Positions 38,280 to 58,787 of a stretch of 64,000 nt of DNA are shown piece after piece; the first letter of the stretch is position 1; every line of letters begins with the position of its first letter. Both the position numbers and the translations under genes were made by a program. The notes beneath the pieces are model-generated. The model did no database searches, was not told the origin of the DNA, and saw nothing but the letters and a program-made list of their open reading frames with translations. The stretch lies in the IMG/VR virus record IMGVR_UViG_3300045988_104133, positions 22,871-86,870 of that record; one strand, given 5' to 3'. Origin of the DNA: a virus.

Positions 38280-38285
38280 CAAACA

Positions 38286-45412: not shown

Positions 45413-45428
45413 GAGTAACGTGTTACTC
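45413..45428. promoter_or_regulatory. Perfect 16-bp palindrome GAGTAACGTGTTACTC (operator-like)
   Basis: Read directly, inside the 680-bp ORF-free leader of the early array. Confidence 0.4.
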
Positions 45429-45613
45429 AGAGACATCCATCCGAGAGATACGCAAAAATTCCTGGCGTGAGCGTCGAATGAGATGAGACGGCACGACGGC
45501 TAGGGGATTTGTATCATCTAGCGAGATGAGAGTTTATAGAAAGAAATCATAATTCATATTCTATTCGGTGTTGTGAGCCGTTCGGGAGTGGTTACCCGAG
45601 AAATCCCAGTGTG

Positions 45614-45629
45614 TGCAATCACGATTGCA
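45614..45629. promoter_or_regulatory. Perfect 16-bp palindrome TGCAATCACGATTGCA (operator-like)
   Basis: Read directly, in the same ORF-free leader. Confidence 0.4.
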
Positions 45630-45860
45630 GCGTTCAAGGTACACACTATCCACGCTGACTGAAATCGGTTGCTTGTCATCCGTGCGAGATTTATCTCCTC
45701 AGAAATAAACAAGTTGCTGGCAGAAGCATAAAATCTGTAGGGTGTGAGCCACGTAGTTAAGACAATAATGATAAAACGTGGTGCAAAGATGCACATCCTG
45801 GCTAACGGGGCGGTGAGAGATCACCGCTCTACAATTATGAACCATTTAAAAATTAGAATT

Positions 45861-46106
45861 ATGAAAGAAGTACATTACATTTGGATAGATTTTGAGAGTT
45901 CAACGGGTTCGTCTAAATCGATACTTTTACGTAACGGTTGTTTTTCTCTCGATGGTGCAAAGAAATTCATAAAATCTTTGCGCCCAAAAACTCTGTATGA
46001 GAATAGACCAACTTTCTTGAAGGACTGTGTAAAAATAACATTGACCGCACAGAACATTGTCTCGTCTAACACTCTCTACAGAAGAACCATTAATATTGTA
46101 GCCTAA
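45861..46106 (+). CDS. Small hypothetical protein (81 aa), first gene of the array
   Basis: In-frame ATG of track ORF 45744..46106, directly after the GAACCATTTAAAAATTAGAATT leader. Confidence 0.6.
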   Translation: MKEVHYIWIDFESSTGSSKSILLRNGCFSLDGAKKFIKSLRPKTLYENRPTFLKDCVKITLTAQNIVSSNTLYRRTINIVA

Positions 46107-46151
46107 AATCTCCCTACGTTTGTAGGGAACAATAACCAAAATTACAGAATT

Positions 46152-46286
46152 ATGAGTACGATGAGAATTAAATGCCTCGATATGAAAGAGGTAGAGAGTA
46201 TCATTGCAGATGCTCAGGAGATTTTAAGTCACGTAGAATTCGGGTCTTTGCAGAATGGTGTGCTTACATTATTCTGCGTGGCGTGA
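46152..46286 (+). CDS. Mini-protein (44 aa)
   Basis: Hand translation MSTMRIKCLDMKEVESIIADAQEILSHVEFGSLQNGVLTLFCVA. Module leader upstream. Confidence 0.45.
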   Translation: MSTMRIKCLDMKEVESIIADAQEILSHVEFGSLQNGVLTLFCVA

Positions 46287-46303
46287 GCCTAAAATCCGTA
46301 GCT

Positions 46304-46670
46304 AGTACGATAATTGTCGTGTGTGGCTACGGAACAATTACCAATAAAATTAGAATTATGAAAGCAAGACAGATTATTTATTCAAGTACGATAATTGTGC
46401 TTGGATTTATTCAGAGTGTTCCTGCTCTGTTGTGTTTAGCAAGTACGAATATTGCCATTATTCTGCTTGGAATATTTTGGGGAATTCTGCTTGGAATATT
46501 CTGGAGAAGTACGATAATTGGCAGATGGTTCTTCAGGGAGCTGTGGAGATCTACACTCCGCTTGGAGAATTTCATCCTGCCTGGAGTGTGAGAGATTTGG
46601 AAAGTACGATAATTGTGCTTGGAAACATTCAGCTAAATTCTGCTTGGAGAAATCCAGGCAGTACGATAAT
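46304..46670 (+). repeat. Irregular direct repeats AGTACGATAAT(TG) and (AT)TCTGCTTGGA
   Basis: AGTACGA(T/A)A copies at 46304, 46385, 46442, 46508, 46603 and 46660. GCTTGGA copies at 46399, 46464, 46489, 46560, 46617 and 46642. Confidence 0.8.
46358..46591 (+). CDS. Questionable hydrophobic ORF (77 aa) spanning a DNA repeat block
   Basis: Module leader upstream, but the peptide repeats simply mirror DNA repeats that extend beyond both ends of the ORF. Confidence 0.3.
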   Translation: MKARQIIYSSTIIVLGFIQSVPALLCLASTNIAIILLGIFWGILLGIFWRSTIIGRWFFRELWRSTLRLENFILPGV

Positions 46671-46693
46671 ATAACCAATCAAACAAGAGAATT

Positions 46694-47023
46694 ATGGATA
46701 GAATATTAAAGCAAGATTTGAGCAAGAATGAGGTTATAGACCTCTTGCGTGGAATGGACGCACAGGAAGTTGAGGGAAATTTCTCTGTACGTCGTGTCCT
46801 GATCAATACACAGGCGTGTGACGTATTCGGTGGAGAACCTGAGGACTCTTATCCTCTCATCCCCGGTACGTACATGGCATTGTATTACAATAGTATTGCC
46901 GGAGACCCGTATCCGCTCTTTGAGAGAATATGTGAAAACATAATAAATGACGAGAACAAGAGCCAGACTCTCCTGAATGGCGATGGCATTATTCTGATTT
47001 TCCTGCTCAACAAGTACGAGTAG
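46694..47023 (+). CDS. Hypothetical protein (109 aa)
   Basis: Track ORF with module leader. Confidence 0.7.
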   Translation: MDRILKQDLSKNEVIDLLRGMDAQEVEGNFSVRRVLINTQACDVFGGEPEDSYPLIPGTYMALYYNSIAGDPYPLFERICENIINDENKSQTLLNGDGIILIFLLNKYE

Positions 47024-47085
47024 CCAAAAATGTGCTCAGGCATTTTCCTGGGCATACTATGTCAAACCATTAAACAAATTGAATT

Positions 47086-47262
47086 ATGTTAGACAAGAAA
47101 TCACAGAAGAATTTTGAGCGTGCGCTTATGCATGAGATGGAGAAGATCAAGATAGCAGCGCGCCAGTGGCATAGCAACAATACTAAGGGCTACAGAGATT
47201 ATCGTAGCAAGAAAACTATCTCCAAGAGTTTCTCTGAGATTGCGGTATTGTGCATGAGCTAA
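47086..47262 (+). CDS. Small basic protein (58 aa)
   Basis: Hand translation MLDKKSQKNFERALMHEMEKIKIAARQWHSNN... Module leader upstream. Confidence 0.5.
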   Translation: MLDKKSQKNFERALMHEMEKIKIAARQWHSNNTKGYRDYRSKKTISKSFSEIAVLCMS

Positions 47263-47310
47263 ATGTGCGTGACGATTGTCACGCATACTATTCACCAATA
47301 TTTAAGAATT

Positions 47311-47601
47311 ATGATAGATGAAGAATACAAGGAGAATGTAGAGTACATACTCTCTACGATTTTGCCTAAGTTGCAGGAAATCCAAAAAAAAGTATTGAAA
47401 AATCAATCAAGACTGAGCCTTGATGTTAGCGTTAGCAATAAAAACGGCGAAGGGTATATAAGTTGTTTTGCCTGTGTCATGAATGACATGGGAGAAATAA
47501 CGGATACTTGTTTTCCACGTTTCATCTGCGTATGCAGCAAAGAGGAGATTGACGAGCGGCTTAACGAACTTAAAGAGTTCATCAAGAAGTACATAGCCTG
47601 A
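47311..47601 (+). CDS. Hypothetical protein (96 aa)
   Basis: In-frame ATG of track ORF 47263..47601 after the module leader. Confidence 0.65.
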   Translation: MIDEEYKENVEYILSTILPKLQEIQKKVLKNQSRLSLDVSVSNKNGEGYISCFACVMNDMGEITDTCFPRFICVCSKEEIDERLNELKEFIKKYIA

Positions 47602-47651
47602 AAATTGAGGGAGTTTTATCTCCCTCTCCTATAAACCAAAAATGTAGAATT

Positions 47652-47921
47652 ATGAGCAAATGGGTACAATTCTATCACAAGATTAATAAGTTTGACCTTG
47701 TGAACATGAGATTTACGGATGATTTCAGTATCGTGGAAATGGTTGGCATGGATTCTATTATGCCTATTGACGGTAGACTTAATCTGTCATCCATACGTGC
47801 TGAGATACAGAAGAAAATAGAGAACATGAAGAAAATCGAGAGTTTCGACCCTTGTGCGTTCTCCATCCTCACCGGTCCTACGATTCTGTGTGCTTCAGAA
47901 AGTCCGGTGTACAATCTCTGA
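47652..47921 (+). CDS. Hypothetical protein (89 aa)
   Basis: Track ORF with module leader. Confidence 0.7.
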   Translation: MSKWVQFYHKINKFDLVNMRFTDDFSIVEMVGMDSIMPIDGRLNLSSIRAEIQKKIENMKKIESFDPCAFSILTGPTILCASESPVYNL

Positions 47922-47979
47922 GCCAGAACTGGGCAGTACGATAATGTGCTGCCTGCTATTAACCAAAACATATAGAATT

Positions 47980-48126
47980 ATGGAAACAGTAAGAGTAACT
48001 GACAGACACGGAATAGAGCGCGCGTGGGATGTCGTAACAGATAAATGTGTAGGCTGTTGTTTCTTAGGCATACACAACGGGACGACGTACTGCTGTCCTA
48101 GCCATATCTCGTGTGACAACAAGTAG
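47980..48126 (+). CDS. Cys-rich mini-protein (48 aa)
   Basis: METVRVTDRHGIERAWDVVTDKCVGCCFLGIHNGTTYCCPSHISCDNK. In-frame ATG of track ORF 47854..48126 after the module leader. Confidence 0.5.
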   Translation: METVRVTDRHGIERAWDVVTDKCVGCCFLGIHNGTTYCCPSHISCDNK

Positions 48127-48187
48127 CCAAATCTGCGGGGCACGTCCTGTGTCCTGCTTCTATTATTAACCAATAAAATTCAGAATT

Positions 48188-48364
48188 ATGACAGACGGAG
48201 ACAGAAAGTTTCTTGCCAGGCTCGTCGCGAGTCACAAGGCAGTTATCAGCGAGGAGTGCAGACGCAAGAACCTCGACAAGAGCGAGTATTTCAGACGCGT
48301 AGCGCGTGCAGACAAGAAAGCTCAGGAGATTGAACAATCGTGCATGCGACCTCGCAAGTTCTAG
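48188..48364 (+). CDS. Small basic protein (58 aa), possible ribbon-helix-helix DNA binder
   Basis: Hand translation MTDGDRKFLARLVASHKAVISEECRRKNLDKSEYFRRVARADKK... The SEYFRRVA pattern recalls CopG/MobC-type RHH proteins. Confidence 0.5.
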   Translation: MTDGDRKFLARLVASHKAVISEECRRKNLDKSEYFRRVARADKKAQEIEQSCMRPRKF

Positions 48365-48425
48365 CCAAACATTCTGTGCAGTCTATCTGCACAGAAACCA
48401 TGTTAAACCATAAAAATGTAGAATT

Positions 48426-49319
48426 ATGAAGAAAATTGTTAATACATTTACGAAGATTTTCGTACGAGACGGAAAGCGTCACAGAATTGTCGCTGTCGCT
48501 TCTTTAGGTGATGAGTGCAGAAATAACATCTGCACTTTCTCTATTACAGGTCAGATAGATATTTTCTGTTTCGGTTCATGGCACTGCAAAACCTGCGGTT
48601 GCATTACAGACGAGATATGCAAATTCTTTCCAGAATTGAAACCATTTGTAAATCTTCACATGTGCAACTACAAGGGACAGCCATTCTATACTGTGGATAA
48701 TGGTATTTACTATGTATCCCAAAGTAAGGAGATTGCTATGCGTAATCTCAGAATTACCGAGGATGAGTACGATGCCCTGCTCCCTGCTGCCGAGCTGAAC
48801 GACAAGGACTATTTTGTCTATAAGTTATTCAAGCTTGGCATCGTTAAGAGATGGAAGTCTGAAGCTGATAAGTTTATTGAGTTTCTTCTTCGCCAAGGAG
48901 GTGAATGGGAGAATCCATACACTATCAGCGACGAAAGACCGACAATTAAGCTGACCGGAGGCATAAGAGCTCTTGTAGAATCCAGACTCAAGAAAGGATA
49001 CTACACGAAGGAAAATATTGATAAGATATTGCAGCAAAGAAGAGCTGACGAAATCAGCAAGAAACGTCAGTCTATAATTGAAGAGTACTACAAGAAGACC
49101 GAAAAAGCTCGCAATGAGCGTGACGTGATGCTTTACATTCTTGACCACGGTCTTTCTATCGGTAACGTGATTTATTACGATTACAACAACACCGTGAAGT
49201 TCAACTGGCTCGATTACAAGGAGCAGATTACGAAAGAACAGTTCGAGAATTTTATTGGGAACTTAGATCCCAGCAAGTTGCCTGAGGGTATTAAATTCTC
49301 AATCGACATCAAGAAGTAG
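48426..49319 (+). CDS. Hypothetical protein (297 aa)
   Basis: Track ORF with module leader. Confidence 0.8.
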   Translation: MKKIVNTFTKIFVRDGKRHRIVAVASLGDECRNNICTFSITGQIDIFCFGSWHCKTCGCITDEICKFFPELKPFVNLHMCNYKGQPFYTVDNGIYYVSQSKEIAMRNLRITEDEYDALLPAAELNDKDYFVYKLFKLGIVKRWKSEADKFIEFLLRQGGEWENPYTISDERPTIKLTGGIRALVESRLKKGYYTKENIDKILQQRRADEISKKRQSIIEEYYKKTEKARNERDVMLYILDHGLSIGNVIYYDYNNTVKFNWLDYKEQITKEQFENFIGNLDPSKLPEGIKFSIDIKK

Positions 49320-49323
49320 CCAA

Positions 49324-49363
49324 CCAATCCTCACTCCAACGGGTGGGGATTTCTATTAACCAA
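49324..49363 (+). repeat. 40-nt direct repeat, copy 1
   Basis: CCAATCCTCACTCCAACGGGTGGGGATTTCTATTAACCAA. Differs at one position from the copy at 49719..49758. Confidence 0.9.
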
Positions 49364-49374
49364 ATATTAGAATT

Positions 49375-49713
49375 ATGATAACGGATTACTACACAGCCGT
49401 ACACTGGCTAAAAAGTGCGTTCATCCTCTGTAACGAGATTGTAGAGAATGACGAATCAGTGATTGAAAACATCGAGTATCCAGAGATGACAGAAGAAGAA
49501 AGGAACAGAATCGAGATATTCCAGTGGTTCCTCACTAACATGAGCGAAGAGGATAAGGAATGGATGCAGAAGAATTTCCCTGATCTTATCTTCTCTTACT
49601 CAGACAAGCTTGACTTGTGGATTCTTTGCGTAGATCATTTTGGAACGATGTGGAAGGGAGTCCCAACGACTACCAACTGCGAGAATGCGGCAAAGGCTAG
49701 CCAGCTGCCGTAG
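49375..49713 (+). CDS. Hypothetical protein (112 aa), flanked by the 40-nt direct repeats
   Basis: Track ORF with module leader. Confidence 0.7.
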   Translation: MITDYYTAVHWLKSAFILCNEIVENDESVIENIEYPEMTEEERNRIEIFQWFLTNMSEEDKEWMQKNFPDLIFSYSDKLDLWILCVDHFGTMWKGVPTTTNCENAAKASQLP

Positions 49714-49718
49714 CCAAA

Positions 49719-49758
49719 CCAATCCTCACTCCCACGGGTGGGGATTTCTATTAACCAA
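49719..49758 (+). repeat. 40-nt direct repeat, copy 2
   Basis: CCAATCCTCACTCCCACGGGTGGGGATTTCTATTAACCAA. Confidence 0.9.
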
Positions 49759-49771
49759 CAATTACAGAATT

Positions 49772-50011
49772 ATGAGTGATTTAGAGAAAATCCTGAATGA
49801 CGATTTGCTGAAGTGTAAAATCGTTGAGTCTGTAGAGAATCCTGTTAGGCGTGTGGATCTCATCAAGTGGACGCACGGCAATACATACTCTATTGCAGAG
49901 GTACGCAAGGATACCGGTAAGCTAGAGGTCACAGACTTGAAAGCTGCCAGTGGTCTTGAAGCATACAAGCATTTCTTCAGAAATTATGGAGACATTGCCA
50001 TATGTGGCTAA
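49772..50011 (+). CDS. Hypothetical protein (79 aa)
   Basis: In-frame ATG of track ORF 49640..50011 after the module leader. Confidence 0.65.
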   Translation: MSDLEKILNDDLLKCKIVESVENPVRRVDLIKWTHGNTYSIAEVRKDTGKLEVTDLKAASGLEAYKHFFRNYGDIAICG

Positions 50012-50063
50012 ACCTCCCCACATCATCGTGGGGAACAATTATGAACCATTAAACAGATGAATT

Positions 50064-50603
50064 ATGGAAAATAATATTTGGGAATATGTTATGAACAGCA
50101 AGGGTGAGGTTATCGAGAAAGTAGCCGATTATATCGGTGTGGAAAGCTTCGCCAAGGTGATTGAGAATCTCTATCGCGAATGCCTGGAGGAATTCGATGA
50201 CGCGGAAGACATGAAAGAATACATTGCCGATTTATACGGAAAGAATATCCAGTCTCTTGCGTGGGAGTTTACTCTAGAGGCAAACAAGGAGATGAAGAAA
50301 TATCTCCATAAGGATTCTCAGCATATGGATGGCAATTTCGCCAATCTGTACGAGGACTACCCTAAGCACAGAACAGGTGTTTGGTGGGCATCAGACTACG
50401 ATGGCGATGATTACTACGATTTGTATCCTCAGATGGTAGCCCGACTTGATGCCGCAGAGGACAGCGAACAGGCTAACGAGGATAGAGCATATCTTGAAGA
50501 GTGGTATTTCAAAGCCTTCGGTACGTACAACATCAAGTACAATTTCGGCAATTACCTTGAAGAGGTTCACTCCATGATGGAGGAAGATTACGAGGAAGCC
50601 TAA
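50064..50603 (+). CDS. Acidic hypothetical protein (179 aa)
   Basis: Track ORF with module leader. Confidence 0.75.
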   Translation: MENNIWEYVMNSKGEVIEKVADYIGVESFAKVIENLYRECLEEFDDAEDMKEYIADLYGKNIQSLAWEFTLEANKEMKKYLHKDSQHMDGNFANLYEDYPKHRTGVWWASDYDGDDYYDLYPQMVARLDAAEDSEQANEDRAYLEEWYFKAFGTYNIKYNFGNYLEEVHSMMEEDYEEA

Positions 50604-50657
50604 CAATATCCCCTAGCATGGGGGTATTCAATGTTAAACCATTTAAATGATTAGATT

Positions 50658-51479
50658 ATGAGTTACGAATTTGCAAAGAAGGAAATCGGTGATTACAGAA
50701 TCACCATTTACCAGGATGAGGATGCTGAATCGCCTTGCTCTGCATGGGATTTGGCATGAGTTTACTTCTGGGACTATTCCGACTACGGATACAACAGAGG
50801 TCTGTCTCGTGGTTGCAGCAGCGAAGTTGACGCTAAAAATGCAGATGATGCTTTGAAAGAGCTTGTCTGCAAATATGTGTCACAAAAGAAGATCATCGAC
50901 TACATCAATAGCGAAAATGTCGATAGCTTCCGTATACGTTATGACAAGAGCGAGCACATGTGGTATCTTGAGAATCTGTACAAGGGTGAGTGGTACAACC
51001 ACGAAGAGTTCTGCCCGAGCGACCTGAAGAGATTCGACTATAGAGAGGAGCTTTGTGATATCCTCGAAGAGGACGATTTCACGTATCTTCTGCATGACTG
51101 CAAGGATATTGCATTCTACGAGTGGTCCTCTACTGGCTACAGTCAGGGAGATTATGTTAGCGGATATGCCTACTGCGACAAGAATCGCTTCTCCAAGTAT
51201 TGTGACACTAATACAAAAAACTGGAGAAAGCGAGCCTTGGACTTATTTGAGCATGAGGTTAAGTGCATAGGTCTTTGGATGTGGGGAGATGTCAAGGGAT
51301 TCGTCTTGGAGAAGAAAGTCCATTACAAGAAAGTCTTCACGGAAATAGGTCGTGAGCCGGAGGACGACTACGACTGGGAACAGATTGATTCCTGCTGGGG
51401 AGAGTACTACGAGGACTCTGACGAGCTGATTAAAGTCGCTCTCGAAGAGAATGGAATCAAACTAAAAGAAACAGCCTAA
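50658..51479 (+). pseudogene. Single 273-codon reading frame interrupted by one in-frame TGA (50757..50759); either a nonsense pseudogene or a read-through/recoded gene
   Basis: The module leader is only at 50658. The frame reads MSYEFAKKEIGDYRITIYQDEDAESPCSAWDLA-TGA-VYFWDYSDYGYNRGL... and continues into track ORF 50853..51479, which has no leader and only a TTG start. Confidence 0.6.
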
Positions 51480-51529
51480 CCAAGGGGAGCTTTCATGCTC
51501 CTCTTCTATGAACCAAATTACAGAGAATT

Positions 51530-51790
51530 ATGGGAAAGATTACAATTTCGCAGAAGGGAAGTAGAACTATCTACAGAGTGAACAGAAGAATCGTGTGCTA
51601 TCGTGACGGGCACAAGTATTGTGTGGGCAAGCCATCATCTGGCAGCACCCATATCGAGTTTGATGCCTTGTCCGAGAATATTGCACACGAGAGATGTATT
51701 GAGATTTGTGAGCGTAGAATCAATGCAGAGATGAAGTATCAGAATCCTGTCGCATACAACGCCCACAGAGTATTGAACGCATTAGCCTAA
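51530..51790 (+). CDS. Hypothetical protein (86 aa)
   Basis: Track ORF with module leader. Confidence 0.7.
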   Translation: MGKITISQKGSRTIYRVNRRIVCYRDGHKYCVGKPSSGSTHIEFDALSENIAHERCIEICERRINAEMKYQNPVAYNAHRVLNALA

Positions 51791-51839
51791 AAGATAGCCT
51801 TCGGGCTATCACTATTAACCAATTAAACAAAAGAGAATT

Positions 51840-52166
51840 ATGACAAAAGAAGCTACAAAGGTATTCGATAAGTTTTTCAAGATTCATCGTGACAACGTTG
51901 CAGGTAAGACTATCTGCTTTATCTCACGTGGAGAGTGGTCCGATCCTCAGATTGCGTACAAGGGCTATCTCCTTAACTACTGGGATGTGCTAGAGCTGGC
52001 GTGTCCTGAAGATGCGCCGGATGATTACGAACCAGACGAAACAGAATGGTATGACGCTTGTGTGGATTCTCTATTCGGCTACACAGATTGCGGCTTAAAA
52101 CCTGACAAGTTTGAGCCATCAGACGCTATGAGCGTGACAGGTATCATTAATATCAAGAAGCCTTAA
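51840..52166 (+). CDS. Hypothetical protein (108 aa)
   Basis: Track ORF with module leader. Confidence 0.7.
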   Translation: MTKEATKVFDKFFKIHRDNVAGKTICFISRGEWSDPQIAYKGYLLNYWDVLELACPEDAPDDYEPDETEWYDACVDSLFGYTDCGLKPDKFEPSDAMSVTGIINIKKP

Positions 52167-52216
52167 AAACGGAGGGAGCAATCCCTCTGACATTATTAAC
52201 CAAATTATTAAAGATT

Positions 52217-52447
52217 ATGAAGAGATATTACGTATCAGTCACAGAGACTTTAAACAAGATTGTCAGCGTCGATGCCAAGAGTGAGAAAGATGCGCTTGAA
52301 CAAGTACAAACAGCCTACAATGATTCTGTCATCGTTCTCGATTCCAGCAATTTTGTAAACGAAGAAATAGAGCTTGATTCTAATCAGGAGTTATATGCTG
52401 ACAACGAAAAAGAGCAGGGAGGAGATGTTTATCAGCACATCGACTAG
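52217..52447 (+). CDS. Hypothetical acidic protein (76 aa)
   Basis: Track ORF with module leader. Confidence 0.65.
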   Translation: MKRYYVSVTETLNKIVSVDAKSEKDALEQVQTAYNDSVIVLDSSNFVNEEIELDSNQELYADNEKEQGGDVYQHID

Positions 52448-52495
52448 CCAAACGGGGAGAGCAATCTCCCTACCAATAACCAAAACACAAGAATT

Positions 52496-52864
52496 ATGAA
52501 TGAAGACAGAATCCTAGAGATGTTCTTCGAAAAAGCCAGATGGCAGTATGCTATCGAGAAAGGCTTATTCAAGGACATGAACAAAGCAGTAATGTATCAG
52601 CTTACAACGCCGGAGGCTCGTCTGGCTATGTATCAGAGGATCAAGAGCGGCAATTACAAGATAATGCCGCCACACACAGCGAAGATTCCGAAAGACAACG
52701 GAGATTTCCGTACGGTCTACGTGAATGAAGCTGTAGACAGAATCCTCCTGAGCATCGCCAACGACCTCTTGTTTGAGCTGATGCCAGAGATGGTGCATCC
52801 ACGCTGTCAAGGAAGACAAGGATGGAAAAAAGAAGAAGACATACAAGCATACCTGCAAGGGTAA
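52496..52864 (+). CDS. Reverse-transcriptase-like N-terminal fragment (fingers motifs only, 122 aa)
   Basis: SGNYKIMPPHTAKIPKDNGDFRTVYVNEAVDRILLSIANDLL matches the RT motif 1-2 pattern (G.Y.P...IPK..G..R.....DR..Q). No YxDD region follows. Confidence 0.55.
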   Translation: MNEDRILEMFFEKARWQYAIEKGLFKDMNKAVMYQLTTPEARLAMYQRIKSGNYKIMPPHTAKIPKDNGDFRTVYVNEAVDRILLSIANDLLFELMPEMVHPRCQGRQGWKKEEDIQAYLQG

Positions 52865-52907
52865 TCCTTATATCCGTCTTCAAAACGAAAACATCTTCGT
52901 CGCTGAC

Positions 52908-53309
52908 TTGGAGAGAAAGGTATACAATCCTCTCCGTGACCTTGCCAACAAGATGAGTGCTGTAGAAACCTACAAGGAACTCTACGATGCCGTTCGCAAG
53001 TTCAACAAGAACCGCAAGCATCTCGCATGGGACACCAAGCAGGCAGATGCATTCATTCATGCTTACAAGGGTTCTGGTTCCTACTACACGATGAGAAACC
53101 TCATCATGTTCCATGGAGCAAGATTCATGAAGAACGGACGAAAGATGTCAGAGGCCAATTCTCTGAAAGAGCTTGACTCTAAAGCCAAGCTCTACGATGA
53201 AGAGGGTTGGAAGATGCTCGGTGTACTCAAGCAGCTTATCAAGGACAATAATATCAGCGTCCAGGGCAAGATTCTTGAATGGAAGAAAGCCAAGAGCGAG
53301 AATAAGTAA
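52908..53309 (+). CDS. Hypothetical protein in the frame overlapping the RT-like fragment (133 aa from TTG)
   Basis: This frame is open from 52782 and overlaps the RT-like ORF by 83 nt. No module leader and no ATG before 52953. Confidence 0.45.
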   Translation: MERKVYNPLRDLANKMSAVETYKELYDAVRKFNKNRKHLAWDTKQADAFIHAYKGSGSYYTMRNLIMFHGARFMKNGRKMSEANSLKELDSKAKLYDEEGWKMLGVLKQLIKDNNISVQGKILEWKKAKSENK

Positions 53310-53340
53310 TCATCAGTAAGACGTAAGGTTCGCCGCCTAA

Positions 53341-53476
53341 AGAATGGTGGCCCGGCAGCAATTCACAAGAGCTTCTTCAACGAAGGATCTCCTCCAGTCA
53401 CTACTGGAGGTAATCCTTCGAGCTAAAGCTCTCTAGATCGAACTATTAAAGCAAGGCGCCAGCCGGGAGCCATTCT
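53341..53476 (+). ncRNA. Candidate structured RNA occupying an ORF-less cassette position
   Basis: Closing helix 53341..53356/53462..53476 (7+6 bp). Inner hairpin 53382..53419 (7+8 bp, loop CACT). G+C-rich, followed by a complete junction module. Confidence 0.4.
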
Positions 53477-53541
53477 AGCCCAAAAAAGTCGGTTACTGAT
53501 TCGGTAACCGATTCAAAGTCTAACCAATAAAATTAAGAATT

Positions 53542-53937
53542 ATGAAGGAAATTAATGTAGACACAAGAGAGTATATTAAGGCTCTTATTGACGGGAAGAA
53601 TGTCGTCGAGGAATCACTTCTAGACGCCATCTTTGACGATTCGCAATATCTCACCAATAAGTTTTTTTCATTGGGATTTGTCGGAGGCGCACCTACAATG
53701 ATAGAGTATCACGGAAACTACCTATCTATCAGGAAGCTTCGATCGTGGATTACATCAGAGTGGGGTAGAGAGATTGTCAAACGACTGACTGGCGAATCAA
53801 AAAATAATATATACTATTTCGAGACGAAGCAGTATCTCGACGAACGCCAGGCTGAGCCTTTAATCTATACATTCTTTCTGAGCACAGATTACCTTACTGT
53901 AAGATTTCACTACAATGTAAAAGTAGATGAAGATTAG
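53542..53937 (+). CDS. Hypothetical protein (131 aa)
   Basis: Track ORF with module leader. Confidence 0.7.
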   Translation: MKEINVDTREYIKALIDGKNVVEESLLDAIFDDSQYLTNKFFSLGFVGGAPTMIEYHGNYLSIRKLRSWITSEWGREIVKRLTGESKNNIYYFETKQYLDERQAEPLIYTFFLSTDYLTVRFHYNVKVDED

Positions 53938-53977
53938 CCAAACATGTCAGTCGTTAGCAGCGGCTGACTACTCATAT

Positions 53978-54004
53978 CATAACTAAATTTTGTTTAAATG
54001 GTTC
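53978..54004 (+). other. Inverted (anti-leader) copy of the junction-module leader
   Basis: The reverse complement reads GAACCATTTAAACAAAATTTAGTTATG, followed by a 2-codon ORF. Confidence 0.6.
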
Positions 54005-54007
54005 AAG

Positions 54008-54037
54008 CCGGTCTGTCGTGAGACACGCCGGTTTTTT
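54008..54037 (+). terminator. Intrinsic terminator inside the early array
   Basis: CCGGTCTGTC/GACACGCCGG stem followed by TTTTTT. Confidence 0.7.
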
Positions 54038-54071
54038 GTTCCCCAAGTTTAACCAATTTTAAATTAGAATT

Positions 54072-54776
54072 ATGAGTAGAAATTACTGGACATTAGGTAA
54101 GGAAGGAATGAAGACTCGTTTGTCAAAGGCACAGGCAGCTTACGAGAACGCATTAGAGAACGTCAGCGACTTGCATGTCAAGATCAGCGATGGCAACACA
54201 AAATTGGGAGCTATCCCATCCGTGTCGCTCATTCCGGTCATGGATTGCGGTAACTGTTCAATCTGCTCCAAGAGCTGCTACGACCTGCGCAATGACATGA
54301 TTTACAAGGAGGTCATCAAGACGAGAGCTATCAATTCTGCAATCTACCATGAGGATCCCGAGCGATACTTCAAGGAAATTGATGGGTATCTCGACTACCG
54401 ATTCCCTCGTGCATTCCGATTCCACATCGGTGGTGACATCCAGGATAAATGGTATCTTGACAAGATGTGCGAGATTGCCCGCAAGCATAAGGATACCAAG
54501 TTCCTGGCGTTCACCAAGATGTTCGATGTGTGTAACGAGTATCTCGATGAGGGCAACGTCATTCCAGAGAACATGCACATCTTATTCAGCGGATGGCTTG
54601 GTCTCAAGATGGATAACCGCCACGGATTTCCGGAGGCGCATCCTATCTTCGAGAGCGGTACATCAGCACCGGAAGGGACACGTCTGTGTACCGGAAACTG
54701 CACAGAGTGTCTGAAGGAAGACAGACTATGCTGGTCTATCGGGAAAGGTCAGGCGGTAGGATTCCTTGCACACTAG
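54072..54776 (+). CDS. Cys-cluster protein (234 aa), possibly GP88-like
   Basis: GNTKLGAIPSVSLIPVMDCGNCSICSKSCYD resembles the phage GP88 family as I recall it. Confidence 0.7.
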   Translation: MSRNYWTLGKEGMKTRLSKAQAAYENALENVSDLHVKISDGNTKLGAIPSVSLIPVMDCGNCSICSKSCYDLRNDMIYKEVIKTRAINSAIYHEDPERYFKEIDGYLDYRFPRAFRFHIGGDIQDKWYLDKMCEIARKHKDTKFLAFTKMFDVCNEYLDEGNVIPENMHILFSGWLGLKMDNRHGFPEAHPIFESGTSAPEGTRLCTGNCTECLKEDRLCWSIGKGQAVGFLAH

Positions 54777-54830
54777 CCAAAAGCCCTCTTCGGAGGGTAC
54801 AATGTTTAACCAATTAAAATTTTGTGAATT

Positions 54831-55265
54831 ATGGCAACAGCAAGAAGAGGTACAAGAATGCTCAAAGCTTCTGACATTATGAAAAGAAAGGGAATTGTCC
54901 AGAAACAGATGGACATGGACAAGTTCAACGAGGTTGTAGAGAATTTCTTTATGACCCATGAGCCTAAGGAAACGATTCTCCTAACTCCGAAGAGATTCAT
55001 CGAGATGGATAACCCGCCAGAGGGAGACTTCATTGACTATCTCGATGTCAGCGTTTGGGAGAAGAAGAGTGAGGACCCGGACGACCCGTTCGACTTCATA
55101 GACTATCAGTTCATGAAGAAGAACGGTATGCTCCGTCCTATCCTTATGGTGAACGAGCCTTTCATCGGCAATGCTGCCGGGTGGCTGAGAGATTTTTGTG
55201 GATTCACTGTGAAGAGCAGAACACGAAAGAAGAAGAAGGAATACATCGTGTCTCTGCCGGTGTAA
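54831..55265 (+). CDS. Hypothetical protein (144 aa)
   Basis: Track ORF with module leader. Confidence 0.7.
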   Translation: MATARRGTRMLKASDIMKRKGIVQKQMDMDKFNEVVENFFMTHEPKETILLTPKRFIEMDNPPEGDFIDYLDVSVWEKKSEDPDDPFDFIDYQFMKKNGMLRPILMVNEPFIGNAAGWLRDFCGFTVKSRTRKKKKEYIVSLPV

Positions 55266-55329
55266 AGCCGAACAAGGCGTGGAACAATCCGTTTCACGCT
55301 CCTAGTATTAACCAATTAAAATTAAAGAT

Positions 55330-55902
55330 ATGAATGATTTTTTGAAATTAGCAGAGAATTTAGGATGGAGTTATAATGTTGACGATACACCTAACGAAAG
55401 AGGTGAGGTTTGCGTCGAGTTAGAGAAGTATTCCCCACAAGACCAAGATTTCATCGCCACAATTTGGTTCGAGAATGGCAATAAGTCTGATTTCATGGAT
55501 AAGTTGTATCAATATTATAGCGACTTCGATCCTGACGAGGAAGCCAGTAAATGGATTGGCGAGGATGGACATGGTGCTAACGGCGCGCCATACAAATTAT
55601 CGGATATTTTGCAAGATATGGAGGATTGCAAGGATATGCTACTAGATTTATGGCACGAGTATTTTTACGATGAGTACCCAGAAAATCGTCCAAATGAGAC
55701 CGACGAAGGGAAGCGACTCGCAGGAGAAATCGAGGAGAAATCCGGAAAGTATTACCACTCGTGCTCTCTACAGAATTATCCGAGCGGTAAGTACGGCGTT
55801 ATCATTGATGGCTGTCAGAAGTTTCTATCGGACTGCAAGGAAGAGGCATTAGCCTATATGAAAGGCGTGCTTATGGGCCTTGATATCGAAAGAAAAGACT
55901 AA
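55330..55902 (+). CDS. Acidic hypothetical protein (190 aa)
   Basis: Track ORF with module leader. Confidence 0.75.
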   Translation: MNDFLKLAENLGWSYNVDDTPNERGEVCVELEKYSPQDQDFIATIWFENGNKSDFMDKLYQYYSDFDPDEEASKWIGEDGHGANGAPYKLSDILQDMEDCKDMLLDLWHEYFYDEYPENRPNETDEGKRLAGEIEEKSGKYYHSCSLQNYPSGKYGVIIDGCQKFLSDCKEEALAYMKGVLMGLDIERKD

Positions 55903-55958
55903 GCCAAACAAGCCTGCCGGGAACGGTGGGCATCAAGTTAAACCAAAATATTAAGATT

Positions 55959-56477
55959 ATGAAGAGAAAAGTATTGAAAGACAAGATTGATGAGTTGCGT
56001 TCAACAGCAAAGATGGAACTTGCATGCACCATCCGTGAGATAATGAGAGAGCACAATGTGAGCAGAAAGGTGTTCGATTGGCCTGTACTTGCCGGCGACA
56101 ACAGGGAGGTGAACATCGTAGAAGTAGGCGACAGCGATACAGCTATCCCTATCATTCATAGCCGATGCACTTCTGTAGGGTTTGAGTTTCCGGAAGCAAA
56201 AGCTATCGATGACGATATACCAGTTGACCTTCTTGCAGACATCGCTACTAGTCTGAACGACGAGCTGAACGGCTATATTGGTGTCTATGCTGCAAAGTAT
56301 AAGATTGCCTACAATGATGGAATTTTCATTTCTAAGGAGAATCCTTACGTATTCCGAGCAAAATCATATAAAGATGCATTGGATGAGGCGGAAGACTACA
56401 TGCGTGTGTGGAATGACCATAATGGTTCTACCCTAAGACTCGTATCAGTCGAGAAGCAGACTGCTTCGGAAGGTTAA
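55959..56477 (+). CDS. Hypothetical protein (172 aa)
   Basis: In-frame ATG of track ORF 55926..56477 after the module leader. Confidence 0.7.
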   Translation: MKRKVLKDKIDELRSTAKMELACTIREIMREHNVSRKVFDWPVLAGDNREVNIVEVGDSDTAIPIIHSRCTSVGFEFPEAKAIDDDIPVDLLADIATSLNDELNGYIGVYAAKYKIAYNDGIFISKENPYVFRAKSYKDALDEAEDYMRVWNDHNGSTLRLVSVEKQTASEG

Positions 56478-56560
56478 ATTAGCGTTAAAAACGGCAAAGA
56501 CGATGGTTTATATTATAAACTTTTCGTATCTTTGCCACTAGTAACCAAAATATTAGAATT

Positions 56561-57580
56561 ATGACAGAAGAAATAAGAATCAAGACAAGAGATTGGGAGA
56601 GACTTCTGAGCTACACTCAGCAGCAGAAGTACAAGACTGCCATCAAGCAGGGTTGGTTCGCCAATTATCACAGCAACGCCTGGAGGCATGACACGTTCTA
56701 TGGCGCATACATCTGGAAATACCCGAAGCTTATTAAGGTTGTAAGGATGTTCGAAGAGATGCTTGGACATAAGCCATTATGGGAAGACATCACCGACGAC
56801 AATCTGCGCGACCTCTTCGAGAAGATCCAGGAGAACTACGCTCCTAACTCGGCAAGAACCGTATGTGCAACCATCAAGGCTGTGATACGTGAGAATGATG
56901 CTACCAGGGAAATTCCTAGTCCTACGTTCGGCAGAATACTTAGAGCGAAGGCTGTACCGGTCCAGTCTGTATATCTCTCTGATGAGGAGATAAACAGAAT
57001 CATAAAGTACAACCCTCACGGGAAAACAAAAAGATATGTTCAGAGAATGTTTATCATGGAATGTCTCTGTGGCGCACGTTACAGCGACTGCCAGAGAATG
57101 ACGGAAGAGAACATAGATGATACCGGACACTTCCTCGTCTATGTTACTCAGAAAACAAAGACCGAGGTAAGGGTTCCACTTCACAAGAAGCTCCGTAAGT
57201 TCCTCGTATGCGGTACTGGTGACGAGCCTCTTCCGGGTGAGATAGGTGAAAGGACGTTCAATAGAGCACTCCGCGAAATCTGTCGTGACTGCGGAATAGA
57301 TACGAATACAAAAGTGTTCAAAGCTGGAAAGGAAGAGACTGGAAAGAAGTATCGGTTCGTCTCATCCCATACCGGCAGACGCTCGTTCGCAACGAATCTC
57401 TCAAAGAAGGGAGTGCCTCTTGAGCAGATTGCCGTCATGATGGGACATACCAGTAACGGTATGCCTAATATACAGATGACACAGCGCTACATTGTCGGTA
57501 AGACCGAGATTGACAGCAATACACTGAGATTGTTCGGCGTCTATGAAGAAGACCTCGATAACGGTCTAGATGAGGATTAA
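56561..57580 (+). CDS. Tyrosine recombinase embedded in the early array (339 aa)
   Basis: Catalytic pattern GARYSD ... HTGRRSFAT ... MMGHT ... TQRYI. Module leader upstream. Confidence 0.85.
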   Translation: MTEEIRIKTRDWERLLSYTQQQKYKTAIKQGWFANYHSNAWRHDTFYGAYIWKYPKLIKVVRMFEEMLGHKPLWEDITDDNLRDLFEKIQENYAPNSARTVCATIKAVIRENDATREIPSPTFGRILRAKAVPVQSVYLSDEEINRIIKYNPHGKTKRYVQRMFIMECLCGARYSDCQRMTEENIDDTGHFLVYVTQKTKTEVRVPLHKKLRKFLVCGTGDEPLPGEIGERTFNRALREICRDCGIDTNTKVFKAGKEETGKKYRFVSSHTGRRSFATNLSKKGVPLEQIAVMMGHTSNGMPNIQMTQRYIVGKTEIDSNTLRLFGVYEEDLDNGLDED

Positions 57581-57643
57581 GCTAAAACTGGAGGTGGTTA
57601 GCTGCCATCTCCTGCCATTGTTTAACCAATTAAAATAATGAAT

Positions 57644-58066
57644 ATGGTAGAAGATTATACAGTAGAAGAGTTGAATAAACTCATCAATGAGTGCCGGAAG
57701 AAGTACGAAAAGCTAGAAAAGGAGACCGTTATGAAGGCTCTGACTGGCGAGATTGGTACGAACTCCGCAATGGTGGAGGAGTTGGAGATACTCAACATCC
57801 ACTATCACGACGAAATGGATGAGTACGATATCACTGCACCTGACCTGAATCCAGATCTTATCGAAAACTTCAAGAAGGCAGAGCGTGATGGCAAGAACGT
57901 CATCTTCGAGGCACAGGAATATCTTAAGATTCTGGGAATGTGCGAAGAGATGTTCAACCAGAAGATGTGGGTCAACGAAGATGGCCACATATGCGATGAA
58001 GAAGGTAATAGACTTTCCGCCGACAGAGAACATCGTGTTTTCGAAGTTGTTAAGTGCGGGAAATAA
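57644..58066 (+). CDS. Acidic hypothetical protein (140 aa; alternative ATG at 57638)
   Basis: Track ORF with module leader. Last gene before a strong terminator. Confidence 0.7.
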   Translation: MVEDYTVEELNKLINECRKKYEKLEKETVMKALTGEIGTNSAMVEELEILNIHYHDEMDEYDITAPDLNPDLIENFKKAERDGKNVIFEAQEYLKILGMCEEMFNQKMWVNEDGHICDEEGNRLSADREHRVFEVVKCGK

Positions 58067-58143: not shown

Positions 58144-58231
58144 AAAACGGCCCCGATTAGCCAAAATAGGGAGCTTCGGCTCCTGCAATTATTAACAAAG
58201 CCCTATCGCATCACGGTGAAGCGAAAAGAAT

Positions 58232-58390: not shown

Positions 58391-58432
58391 GCAATTACAT
58401 TCAGCCCTCGCTATCACGGTCAAAGCAATCTT

Positions 58433-58741: not shown

Positions 58742-58787
58742 TGTAAAACAACCCTTTAGCCCTCGACATCACGGTAAAGTCAGTAAA

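Follow-up and report, generated by a model that had tools for sequence, protein, structure and literature searches.

Recurrent junction modules in a small-gene array of a temperate Segatella copri phage, and a candidate RNA antisense to their leader

Why should a phage place the same junction element ahead of each of 25 small genes? The carrier is a temperate phage, distantly related to LoVEphage, whose host is the gut bacterium Segatella copri. In the window (the whole 64-kb stretch of DNA analysed), all 25 copies have + orientation and fall within 45.8-57.6 kb. They share the consensus (T)AGCC(W)AAA, a variable hairpin of 6-12 bp, cTAyTATT-AACCAA, about 6-12 G-free A/T-rich nt, and AGAATT-ATG. 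The reading that we favour, at a probability of roughly 0.55, is a transcribed linker that combines an RNA hairpin, a Bacteroidia leader and recombination microhomologies, together with a candidate phage RNA directed against the leader. The modules, all on the + strand, are:

45798-45863, +, module 1, array start: GGCTAAC, hairpin 45810-45827, AACCAT 45840, AGAATT-ATG 45861
46099-46154, +, module 2: TAGCCTAAAA, hairpin 46111-46128, AACCAA 46134, ATG 46152 (44-aa gene)
46283-46360, +, module 3: variant core TTACCAAT, hairpin 46295-46333, ATG 46358
46628-46696, +, module 4: hairpin 46640-46661, AACCAA 46673, ATG 46694
47019-47088, +, module 5: TAGCCAAAAA, hairpin 47031-47056, AACCAT 47065, ATG 47086
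47252-47313, +, module 6: variant core TTCACCAAT, hairpin 47264-47287, ATG 47311
47595-47654, +, module 7: AGCCTGAAAA, hairpin 47607-47626, AACCAA 47634, ATG 47652
47919-47982, +, module 8: hairpin 47931-47954, AACCAA 47961, ATG 47980
48123-48190, +, module 9: TAGCCAAA, hairpin 48135-48157, AACCAA 48168, ATG 48188
48356-48428, +, module 10: TAGCCAAAC, hairpin within 48368-48404, AACCAT 48406, ATG 48426
49314-49377, +, module 11: hairpin 49326-49351, AACCAA 49358, ATG 49375
49709-49774, +, module 12: TAGCCAAAC, hairpin 49721-49746, AACCAA 49753, ATG 49772
50003-50066, +, module 13: hairpin 50015-50034, AACCAT 50044, ATG 50064
50593-50660, +, module 14: GCCTAAC, hairpin 50605-50628, AACCAT 50637, AGATT-ATG 50658; heads gene 50658-51479 (in-frame TAG)
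51470-51532, +, module 15: hairpin 51482-51505, AACCAA 51511, ATG 51530
51781-51842, +, module 16: AGCCTAAAA, UUCG hairpin 51793-51810, AACCAA 51817, ATG 51840
52158-52219, +, module 17: GCAA hairpin 52170-52189, AACCAA 52198, AAGATT-ATG 52217
52442-52498, +, module 18: TAGCCAAAC, GCAA hairpin 52454-52471, AACCAA 52478, ATG 52496
53475-53544, +, module 19: hairpin 53487-53513, AACCAA 53522, ATG 53542
53988-54074, +, module 20: hairpin a true T-run terminator (about 54010-54045), AACCAA 54051, ATG 54072
54771-54833, +, module 21: TAGCCAAAA, UUCG hairpin 54783-54798, AACCAA 54808, ATG 54831
55264-55332, +, module 22: hairpin 55276-55300, AACCAA 55310, AAAGAT-ATG 55330
55900-55961, +, module 23: TAAGCCAAAC, hairpin 55912-55931, AACCAA 55941, AAGATT-ATG 55959
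56481-56563, +, module 24, integrase: hairpin 56493-56536, AACCAA 56543, ATG 56561
57578-57640, +, module 25, last and weakest: TAAGCTAAAA, hairpin 57590-57612, AACCAA 57624, AAAATA-ATG 57638

Every array element listed in a preliminary description is present, including its TAGCCAAA sites at 48362, 49711, 52445 and 53935 and its example hairpins at 51793-51810, 52170-52189 and 54783-54798. Base composition does not account for the recurrence: the strict pattern AACCAW-N5-16-RAWTWATG has 20 matches in the window against 0.15 expected from 100 dinucleotide shuffles, and 18 of the 20 are on the + strand, at 45840-56543. Five looser copies have GATT, GAT or no GAATT (50637, 52198, 55310, 55941, 57624), and two variants read ACCAAT, without the first A (46340, 47294). 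Related viral contigs and S. copri prophages (11-15 copies in each of the latter) supplied 483 further distinct copies, always oriented along one strand. The 5' motif AGCC(W)AAA is conserved at the nucleotide level, with the stop codon in differing registers (TAG-CC, AGCC-TAA, AGCC-TGA, TAA-GCC). The proposed rule of one module per gene holds for intact genes, because both ORFs that lack a leader are 3' parts of genes: ORF 50853 is the end of a single gene (50658-51479) with its module at the gene start and one in-frame TAG, and ORF 52908 is a remnant left by an internal deletion of ~3.6 kb. Limited literature searching brought up no counterpart already described for Bacteroidota phages.

In its behaviour the hairpin is an RNA element of the sense strand, selected as RNA rather than as conserved sequence, in keeping with the RNA-level role first suggested for it. 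It occurs in 25/25 window copies (-8.5 to -21 kcal/mol), with its 3' end 2-13 nt upstream of the ACCA core. The mean MFE of -13.3 kcal/mol compares with -7.1 for shuffles, 87% of copies lie below -8 kcal/mol, and folding is stronger for sense than for antisense RNA (-13.2 vs -11.4 kcal/mol; Wilcoxon p = 1e-21). The commonest loops are GNRA and UUCG. Across orthologous junctions stems are invariant while loops vary, as for module 13 in 18 relatives; the module 1 stem differs in its L009 orthologue by a G.U-compatible change. Genuine T-run terminators are present elsewhere in the same phage, but apart from module 20 the module hairpins lack such a run and are not canonical terminators. In the linker that we favour, AGCC(W)AAA provides a stop codon plus an A-tract, and the hairpin may shield the start region that follows from the coding RNA before it, protect the 3' end of the upstream segment, or both.

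A related reading, compatible with this one and not exclusive of it, treats the modules as places where an RNase cleaves, comparable to the RNase III sites spaced along the early mRNA of T7: a polycistronic RNA would be cut between hairpin and AACCAA, giving hairpin-protected 3' ends and uniform short-leader mRNAs. The sense-strand hairpins with stable tetraloops and no U-run would suit such a role, as would cTAyTATT|AACCAA, a conserved single-stranded stretch whose distance from the stem is fixed, and one 5' end in the S. copri HDD04 lysogen (930069) maps to the loop of the final module's hairpin, without a good promoter box. We regard it as unlikely, given that the stems here are short and simple, from which the RNase III sites of T7 differ.

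Published dRNA-seq of that lysogen shows no TSS at ~20 of its modules (913761-929006). At the integrase module a primary TSS was found in 4/4 conditions, on the G of ctaGTAACCAA and 21 nt upstream of the ATG; the mRNA thus begins 3 nt before AACCAA, with the leader itself as its entire 21-nt 5'UTR. This start is explained by the integrase module's own canonical TATCTTTG box, absent from other modules; in the window this host -7 box lies in the 3' arm of the module 24 hairpin (56527-56534). The modules are not host-type promoters. They could instead be terminator-promoter units, true analogues of PeSLs, making each small gene its own transcription unit: the hairpin would end the upstream transcript, and cTAyTATTAACCAA would be a single-box promoter for a phage-modified or phage-specified RNA polymerase in lytic growth. 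The order of stem-loop, conserved box and gene in a hyperplastic ORFan region matches that of PeSLs (PMC4122927), the motif is restricted to one temporal or functional gene class, the integrase TSS sits at the boundary of hairpin linker and AACCAA, and the module at 54051 comes directly after a genuine T-run terminator, so that its gene needs read-through or re-initiation. We nevertheless judge this quite unlikely. Besides the silence of the HDD04 modules and the canonical box at the sole module TSS, the hairpins have no U-runs and stand only ~21-35 nt from the ATG, AGAATT is locked to the ATG while its spacing from AACCAA floats over 5-15 nt, and the subset of phage proteins scanned yielded no recognisable sigma factor or RNA polymerase. 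Our preferred reading remains a standardised linker, transcribed between the cistrons of an array of co-oriented accessory or early genes, whose co-transcription we infer solely from gene orientation, short gaps and absent host promoter boxes.

Downstream of the hairpin, AACCAA, the A/T-rich spacer and AGAATT-ATG form a short, unstructured, G-free leader bearing the adenines on which Bacteroidia ribosomes rely where others use a Shine-Dalgarno site. The frequency of A is 0.99 at -3, 0.82 at -6 and 0.62-0.81 at -11 to -14; that of G does not exceed 0.04 over most of the stretch from -23 to -1, rising to 0.07-0.15 at -7 and -8, with a conserved G at -5. This pattern matches the initiation determinants measured in Flavobacterium johnsoniae (PMC6847099). 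Since strongly translated Bacteroidia mRNAs need A at -3, -6 and -11 to -14 and no G, part of the leader's conservation is ordinary initiation context.

The three conserved blocks, recurring ~25-fold, also act as microhomologies for gain, loss and swapping of cassettes. Comparison of related phages placed 35% of homology-block ends inside junctions, against 13% expected (p = 1e-7), and explicit recombinants break at AGCCTAA, AACCAA and GAATTATG. Relatives carry the module 10 hairpin ahead of four different genes, the break in each case lying at AACCAT, and module 16 has recombinant junctions in contigs L050, L053 and L055. The suggested likeness to PeSL cassettes of T4 thus stands for shuffling at shared modules, with breakpoints seen in each conserved block, but not in the strict sense, for a PeSL contains a host promoter and these modules do not. 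An integron-like array, with the hairpins as attC-type sites for the terminal tyrosine recombinase (gene at 56561-57580), would also give promoterless small ORFs in one orientation separated by hairpins of variable sequence, and a few copies read GCCTAAC ... GTTAAAC, resembling attC core sites. That reading is effectively refuted: the recombinase scores 21.8 bits on the integron-integrase model against a cut-off of 265 bits, the hairpin flanks are direct CCAA repeats rather than complementary R''/R' sites, and breakpoints fall at three blocks, not one crossover point. The recombinase gene is itself an array cassette, and in S. copri genomes it is the integrase of the prophage.

A single antisense image of the leader lies outside the array, within a candidate anti-leader RNA:

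38272-38279, +, -7 promoter box TACCTTTG of the predicted RNA, fitting TAHHTTTG
38285-38381, +, predicted anti-leader RNA of ~97 nt: 5' stem-loop, open seed region, terminator hairpin, U5
38315-38339, +, seed: CATAATTC (38315-38322), spacer AAATTATT, TTGGTTAAC (38331-38339)
38343-38381, +, intrinsic terminator of the anti-leader RNA and the late operon: stem 38343-38374, GC, T5

The seed CATAATTC-N8-TTGGTTAAC is the exact antisense of GTTAACCAA-N8-GAATTATG, and the predicted RNA doubles as the 3'UTR of the terminase/portal operon, which ends at 38219. Its MFE is -38.9 kcal/mol (z = -6.4), and the region scores 119 bits with a covariance model. The 25 pairs are 92.9% kept, 7 of them with compensatory changes, a number reached by 0/500 shuffles; the terminator stem covaries (CAG/CTG, TGG/CCA, CGG/CCG), with two G.U pairs possible on the + strand only. 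The seed CAU is partly paired within the RNA's own 5' stem. The element is present as one copy per contig in 88 contigs. The -7 box is conserved among homology-retrieved relatives and in the distant L066, and the HDD04 TSS 907834(+), placed by gene geometry, follows the box by 4-14 nt whichever sequence variant is considered.

In this clade, the leader's two blocks, which do not vary between clades, are the likely target of this RNA, whose sequence would allow pairing over the start codons of all array genes. The outcome may be an array-wide translational shut-off, in the lysogen or late in infection; if so, one small RNA might switch off the whole 25-gene set. The operator over the start codon envisaged in the preliminary description thus gains a candidate regulator, a phage antisense RNA and not, as in T4 RegA, a protein. 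Predicted seed duplexes average -15.9 kcal/mol with the 25 leaders versus -8.7 with 63 other start regions, a contrast with some circularity, since the antisense element is an image of the module.

With leader and hairpin as already described, the copy at 38.3 kb could instead be a relic module that cassette recombination stranded in opposite orientation in the late-operon 3'UTR/terminator region, without regulatory action on the array. Modules do recombine freely, and an imperfect inverted leader image also occurs inside the array (53975-54000). In the L019-type clade, which is distant (primase 47% identical) but carries modules, the element is missing within 10 kb either side of the primase, so the modules do not depend on it, and the HDD04 TSS was detected in only 2/4 conditions. 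We hold a relic possible, if somewhat unlikely, because of how the element has been kept. Among 80 relatives retrieved by the neighbouring protein alone, and mostly close (adjacent protein at least 91% identical), which leaves room for a relic, 78 keep C[AG]TAATTC-N5-10-TTGGTTA, with invariant blocks around a spacer whose length and sequence are scrambled, the reverse of what neutral decay would give. The element is also retained in L326 and in L066, whose flanks are ~72% identical, and it lies within a covarying structure, flanked by a conserved -7 box and a covarying terminator. In ~30 of the 80 relatives CGT replaces CAT, destroying the minus-strand ATG, which is therefore not maintained as a start site; pairing to AUG is retained through G.U, and the RNA's own stem carries the compensating change (AUG/CAU to ACG/CGU).

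The gene junctions of the array at 45.8-57.6 kb carry 25 copies of a composite module, all on the + strand, which runs (T)AGCC(W)AAA, a variable hairpin, cTAyTATT, AACCAA, an A/T spacer and AGAATT directly before the ATG; every intact + strand gene in this interval has a module in front. A strict pattern for the part that we call the leader, from AACCAA to AGAATT, together with its start codon (AACCAW-N5-16-RAWTWATG), matches 20 times, far above the 0.15 expected from base composition, with 18 of these matches on the + strand of the array; this rules out chance or base composition as the origin of the module. The total of 25 includes five copies with a weaker ATG-proximal block, and two modules (46340, 47294) have an ACCAAT core without the first A. 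A hairpin of -8.5 to -21 kcal/mol is present in 25/25 modules, ending 2-13 nt upstream of the core. The motifs that the preliminary description cited as examples were all found in the window at their coordinates. Its rule of one module per gene also holds for the two ORFs that lack a leader (50853 and 52908), neither of which is an independent gene. The first is the downstream part of gene 50658-51479, which has a module at its start and one in-frame TAG, and whose ortholog in the related locus L024 is an intact 284-aa protein; the second is the 3' remnant of a ~3.6-kb deletion, after which the first 108 codons of one gene run directly into the tail of a different gene. The TAG (50757-50759) is codon 34 of this otherwise intact 274-codon gene, which has orthologs of up to 284 aa, and could be a nonsense mutation, a sequencing error or a read-through codon. 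The deletion scar (52820-52910) ends inside genes, not at module boundaries, and relatives have a full f1...f3 block between the remnants.

A pattern scan of IMG/VR gave 120 loci, ~63 of them with 4-18 module copies, always confined to one strand per locus, and S. copri genome loci have 11-15 copies each. From 483 distinct copies a consensus was derived, in which the 5' block (T)AGCC(W)AAA places an A-tract directly 5' of a 6-12 bp stem, whose sequence differs from copy to copy so that only pairing is kept, with a loop of 4-6 nt (GTGA, GAAA, TTCG and GCAA among the most frequent). After the stem come the linker cTAyTATT and then AACCAA, typically 7-10 nt of A/T (range 5-15), AGAATT fixed against the ATG, and A-rich codons downstream. 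The stop codon of the preceding gene occupies the 5' motif in varying registers, and this motif is therefore conserved as nucleotides, not codons. GAATTATG has 20 of its 22 window occurrences within the array, so the exact words are class-specific rather than general. We conclude that the module is real, functional and shared across the family.

The window is a tailed-phage genome or prophage, with the following landmarks:
33552-35195, large terminase
35177-36883, SPP1-type portal
30684-31865, minus strand, major capsid protein
41952-43514, minus strand, D5/P4-type primase

Two tyrosine recombinases are also encoded, and two giant ORFs lie on the minus strand in the structural region, one of 2964 aa (10520-19414) and one of 2297 aa (20505-27398). 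Megablast of the window found no close phage relative; the nearest named phages by terminase protein, at 59% identity, are of the Bacteroides/Phocaeicola LoVEphage type. LoVEphage (MW660583.1) shares the layout of the window but has neither this module nor its antisense copy (see below). Its equivalent array has a start-proximal motif of its own, CCTTTAAAyTTTk-N-ATG, which follows hairpins at three genes (10841-10860, 11200-11219, 12653-12673; 3 matches versus 0 expected). The host is Segatella copri and the phage is temperate, because array gene 54072-54776 has copies at 93-97% identity in S. copri genomes, including the complete HDD04 chromosome (NZ_CP152484.1, at 926538-927239). Array genes gave no Pfam, PHROGs or NCBIfam matches except for a GP88-like protein (54072), the integrase and phrog_17696 (48426), and no Rfam family matched anywhere in the window.

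The hairpin is a sense-strand RNA feature. Folding of the 50 nt 5' of AACCA gives a mean of -13.3 kcal/mol versus -7.1 in shuffles, and 87% of related copies lie below -8 kcal/mol. The sense RNA folds better than its reverse complement (-13.2 versus -11.4 kcal/mol, Wilcoxon p = 1e-21), as selection on the transcript for G.U pairs and tetraloops would predict, and at orthologous junctions the loop changes freely while the stem is invariant (ctccccac-NNNNNN-gtgggg in 18 relatives). An RNA-level role had been proposed from the tetraloops and the missing U tract, and the better folding of the sense strand, the kept stems with drifting loops and the lack of a U-run bear this out. As an intrinsic (Rho-independent) terminator the hairpin fails, since no U-run directly follows the stem, except in the copy at 54010-54045; the consensus tail is cTAyTATT. 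Clear T-run terminators occur in the same phage at 38343-38381, 45153-45225, 54010-54045 and 58107-58138. Within the array, the + strand at 53975-54045 has CATAACTAAATTTTGTTTAAATGGTT and, after it, a hairpin and T6. This imperfect inverted leader image lies beside the only T-run terminator of the array, and the CATAACTAAATTTTGTTTAAATGGTT region is exactly conserved in 19 loci.

Primary 5' ends of the S. copri lysogen HDD04 have been mapped by dRNA-seq (doi 10.1101/2024.04.05.588293). The coordinates of this preprint are those of NZ_CP152484.1, and integrase P4D_00837 lies at 929027-930046, exactly where the related locus L125 predicts. Modules that were host sigma-A promoters should show -7 boxes and mapped starts, and one does: at module 24, the integrase copy (56481..56563 in the window), the lysogen has a transcription start site (TSS) at 929006 in 4/4 conditions, 21 nt 5' of the ATG, the single module with a TSS. 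Elsewhere the promoter reading is ruled out. A -7 element (TAHHTTTG) is lacking in 24/25 modules, the integrase copy alone having one, and 24/25 likewise have no TAnnTTTG/TTTG pair; the + strand of the array has only a handful of TAnnTTTG boxes, the space for a promoter between hairpin and gene is only ~21-35 nt, and the lysogen map has no TSS from 913761 to 929006, a span of ~20 modules. Modules are not host promoters. An E. coli-type promoter and terminator scan was uninformative for this phylum. One further mapped 5' end, 930069 (L125 position 13532), falls in the hairpin loop of the last module; it has no promoter box upstream and may stem from processing rather than from true initiation.

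The integrase TSS is the G of ctaGTAACCAA, 6 nt downstream of a TATCTTTG box in the 3' arm of the hairpin (window equivalent 56527-56534), so that the whole integrase 5'UTR in the mapped transcript is the AACCAA...AGAATT leader. This mRNA provides direct evidence that an untranslated region needs nothing beyond the leader. In Flavobacterium johnsoniae, ribosome profiling and reporters showed that Bacteroidia do not use Shine-Dalgarno (SD) sequences, and that initiation is instead promoted by A at -3, -6, -12 and -13 (the -14 to -11 region) and by low structure (PMC6847099). In the 483 copies, the frequency of A is 0.99 at -3, 1.00 at -4, 0.82 at -6 and 0.62-0.81 at -11 to -14, and G is nearly missing from -23 to -1, apart from a conserved G at -5 and a minor fraction (0.07-0.15) at -7/-8. 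The leader thus has the features of SD-less initiation in Bacteroidia: A at -3, at -6 and across -11 to -14, little potential for pairing and no SD. Since its A positions match these determinants, its conservation is partly what a strong start site needs in this phylum. Avoidance of AUG is imperfect, a few leaders (47642, 48416) containing an extra upstream ATG. How Bacteroidia that ignore SD start internal cistrons is still being worked out, and this phage family offers ~500 natural variants of one minimal 20-nt leader; it evidently works, has a mapped 5' end in one copy, and is a ready-made expression part for Segatella and Bacteroides. Modules also help to annotate true gene starts.

Related arrays keep the backbone order while single genes are gained, lost or replaced. 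Homology-block ends fall in junctions in 35% of cases versus 13% expected (for clustered ends, 32/91, p = 1e-7), and crossovers were located at all three conserved blocks. At AGCCTAA, gene w16 is joined to the w18 hairpin and leader in two related loci (L053 and L119). At AACCAA, the w16 hairpin is joined to the w23 leader in L055, and the w09 hairpin occurs with four different leaders and genes. At GAATTATG, L050 has the hairpin and leader of w16-w17 joined to the w18 coding sequence, and in L027 the switch comes just after the ATG. The cassette shuffling suggested earlier by likeness to promoter-early stem-loop (PeSL) elements is thus borne out by breakpoints enriched at junctions in related phages. 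Exchange by an integron, for which the window does encode a recombinase, does not fit: that protein scores 21.8 bits on TIGR02249 versus a cut-off of 265 and is not IntI-like, the flanks are direct CCAA repeats and not complementary R''/R' core sites, and there are three distinct breakpoints, with no single crossover point. In L055, at the junction that follows the w09 homologue, the hairpin loop is an exact inversion of that in other phages (TCTAT versus ATAGA) with the stem unchanged, as would result from a hairpin-mediated template switch. The modules show where exchange takes place in a hypervariable ORFan region of prophages that are very common in the human gut, and can be used to trace cassette flow.

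In limited literature searches we found no description of the module, nor of the antisense RNA treated below. Among the closest known systems to the module are the PeSL/PmSL cassettes of T4-type phages (Arbiol 2010, PMC2839356; Comeau 2014, PMC4122927), which likewise consist of an intergenic stem-loop (often with an A-tract in front), conserved boxes and then the start codon, are repeated among small ORFan genes of hyperplastic regions, are absent from structural genes, and have indel or replacement ends inside the element. PeSLs, however, carry a complete -35/-10 promoter of the sigma-70 type, or else a Mot box, together with a Shine-Dalgarno site, whereas the modules have no host promoter or room for one, no SD, and no TSS at ~20 copies in the lysogen; their conserved part is the leader and translation start region, and the host phylum is another. 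The module is PeSL-like in architecture and evolutionary behaviour, yet fails the defining promoter test.

The SAS and extended SAS (ESAS) elements of Cluster K mycobacteriophages (Pope 2011, PMC3203893) are also asymmetric conserved motifs that lie, in one orientation, a few nt away from the ATG at many non-structural genes, often with an inverted repeat upstream, sometimes with the stop codon of the upstream gene inside the motif, and with a single opposite-orientation copy in several genomes; a translational role has been proposed for them (PMC3203893). The SAS 13-bp consensus GGGATAGGAGCCC contains an SD core and lies 3-8 bp upstream of the start, whereas AACCAA...AGAATT abuts the ATG; ESAS arms are conserved in sequence, whereas module stems vary freely; and no antisense RNA has been proposed for SAS, the opposite-orientation copy of which was not analysed as an RNA gene. 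The module resembles SAS and ESAS in position and orientation, but has neither the GGGATAGGAGCCC consensus nor inverted repeats of conserved sequence.

T4 RegA represses ~30 early mRNAs via an A/U-rich unstructured operator that includes the AUG (PMC3014915). The known operators AAAAUUAUG and AAAUUAUGA are close to the module AGAAUUAUGA; RegA is a protein, however, and its operators are not strictly conserved, whereas the candidate regulator here is an RNA. The RegA analogy drawn in the preliminary description therefore stands at the level of logic, the block over the start codon resembling operators such as AAAUUAUGA, but not at that of the protein, as no RegA homologue was recognised among the window proteins scanned. 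In the T7 early region, RNase III hairpins punctuate one long early transcript and stabilise upstream segments. These intercistronic hairpins resemble those of the array, but T7 sites are larger, have internal loops, number about ten per genome and are not coupled to a conserved leader. We class the module with the cassettes that recur in phage accessory regions and serve regulation and shuffling, here in a form adapted to translation without SD.

The strict module pattern has a single match on the other strand, at 38315-38336. Read on the minus strand, it would head a 7-codon ORF after a terminator, which makes little sense. On the + strand it lies within a predicted ~97-nt RNA (38285-38381), here called the anti-leader RNA, among these features:
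38219, + strand, stop of the last terminase-portal operon gene
38272-38279, + strand, conserved TACCTTTG box, then a 5' stem-loop
38315-38339, + strand, seed CATAATTC-AAATTATT-TTGGTTAAC
38343-38374, + strand, strong hairpin, then GC and T5 (terminator with T-run)

The box agrees with the revised -7 consensus TAHHTTTG, which lies 4-5 nt from the start (PMC6847099). The predicted 97-nt RNA folds at -38.9 kcal/mol (z = -6.4), with the seed largely open in the MFE structure except for CAU, and the two 8-9-nt blocks of the seed are exact antisense of the leader consensus. An exact-pattern scan found one antisense copy per contig in 88 viral contigs, many of which also have arrays. In 80 relatives, retrieved by the neighbouring 182-aa protein alone to avoid ascertainment bias, C[AG]TAATTC-N5-10-TTGGTTA is present in this intergenic region in 78, with an insertion at this place in the remaining two. 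Both blocks are invariant, whereas their spacer varies in length and sequence. CGT replaces CAT in ~30/80, which removes the minus-strand ATG and retains pairing with AUG via G.U, and the RNA's own stem has the matching change, from AUG to ACG, in its 5' arm. In an alignment of 15 diverse sequences, the 25 proposed pairs are kept in 92.9% of cells, versus 32-55% with slid partners, and seven pairs show compensatory changes, a number reached by 0/500 shuffles. The element is also present in the related loci L066, with flanks ~72% identical, and L326.

Expression was approached through the HDD04 map, where the neighbouring genes are the 184-aa gene (908139-908693), the primase (911132-912694) and a further gene (913802-914323). 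Gene spacing around the 62-aa and 184-aa genes is conserved in 24 loci retrieved by exact protein, and puts the stop of the HDD04 182-aa gene at 907760-907770, with the last G of the -7 box 60 nt later. The single mapped TSS in that stretch, 907834(+), from early-exponential and stationary libraries, would lie 4-14 nt after the box and upstream of the seed under any variant, as placed by gene geometry, not sequence; with the 191-nt variant, the same geometry puts it exactly 4 nt past the box. The anti-leader RNA very probably exists.

Predicted duplexes between seed and leader have two helices of ~8 bp each, one of them across the AUG, with a mean energy over the 25 leaders of -15.9 kcal/mol (range -10.5 to -23.1) versus -8.7 for 63 other phage start regions (p = 3e-12), a contrast that is partly built in because the seed is the image of the module. 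The leader blocks are identical in all clades examined, even distant relatives. One of these, the L019 clade, has modules and no anti-leader within 10 kb either side of the primase by pattern, eye or covariance model, so the link between module and RNA is not a necessary one. In this type the primase is 47% identical, the late region is rearranged, a plain terminator follows the 182-aa homologue, and the covariance model gives only weak antisense-of-module matches. Modules therefore work without the anti-leader RNA.

That the RNA acts on the leaders is a good hypothesis, though we put it somewhat short of even odds. In its full form, one ~97-nt RNA, antisense to the identical leader of ~25 unrelated accessory genes, would be a master translational switch for the array, to which we give a probability of roughly 0.35. 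Such an RNA could silence the array in the lysogen, could silence matching genes of incoming relatives as a form of immunity and, as part of the 3'UTR of the terminase operon, could stop the array late in infection. Temperate phages have trans-acting antisense immunity RNAs (P1/P7 c4, P4 CI, P22 sar, lambda OOP), which are small, consist of stem-loop, open seed and terminator, are expressed in the lysogen, and are complementary to phage mRNAs in their leader or ribosome-binding regions, in some cases at several sites, with one to a few targets. The anti-leader RNA is closest in kind to P1 c4, P4 CI and P22 sar, but here one seed would fit ~25 identical leaders, and the host lacks SD initiation, so the target is the A-rich leader and AUG. 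If functional, no phage sRNA would have been described earlier from this phylum, and the use of one seed for many targets would be an unusual design for silencing prophages or for superinfection immunity. If the master switch is real, it would do with RNA what the T4 RegA regulon does with a protein, in a phylum without Shine-Dalgarno pairing. HDD04 is genetically tractable and carries a relative of this prophage, and there the hypothesis is directly testable.

We note some further peculiarities around the array. (i) Between two T-run terminators and the first module lie ~560 nt of non-coding DNA (45230-45790), rich in (C/T)GAGA(G/T) words and with no Rfam match, which could be iterons, partition sites or a structured RNA. 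(ii) Direct repeats AGTACGATAAT(TGTGCTTGGA) and ATTCTGCTTGGA occur in 5-6 copies at 46301-46670 and 47932-47945, some within ORF 46358-46591 and others in the hairpin loops or linkers of modules; TACGATAAT is also the hairpin-to-AACCAA linker in other phages. (iii) Beyond the end of the array, a second junction motif, GCCCTnnnnATCACGGTnAAG, lies at 58404-58424 and 58759-58779 (2 matches versus 0.05 expected), with a looser copy near 58195-58215, just 5' of three consecutive small + strand genes (58232, 58433, 58788).
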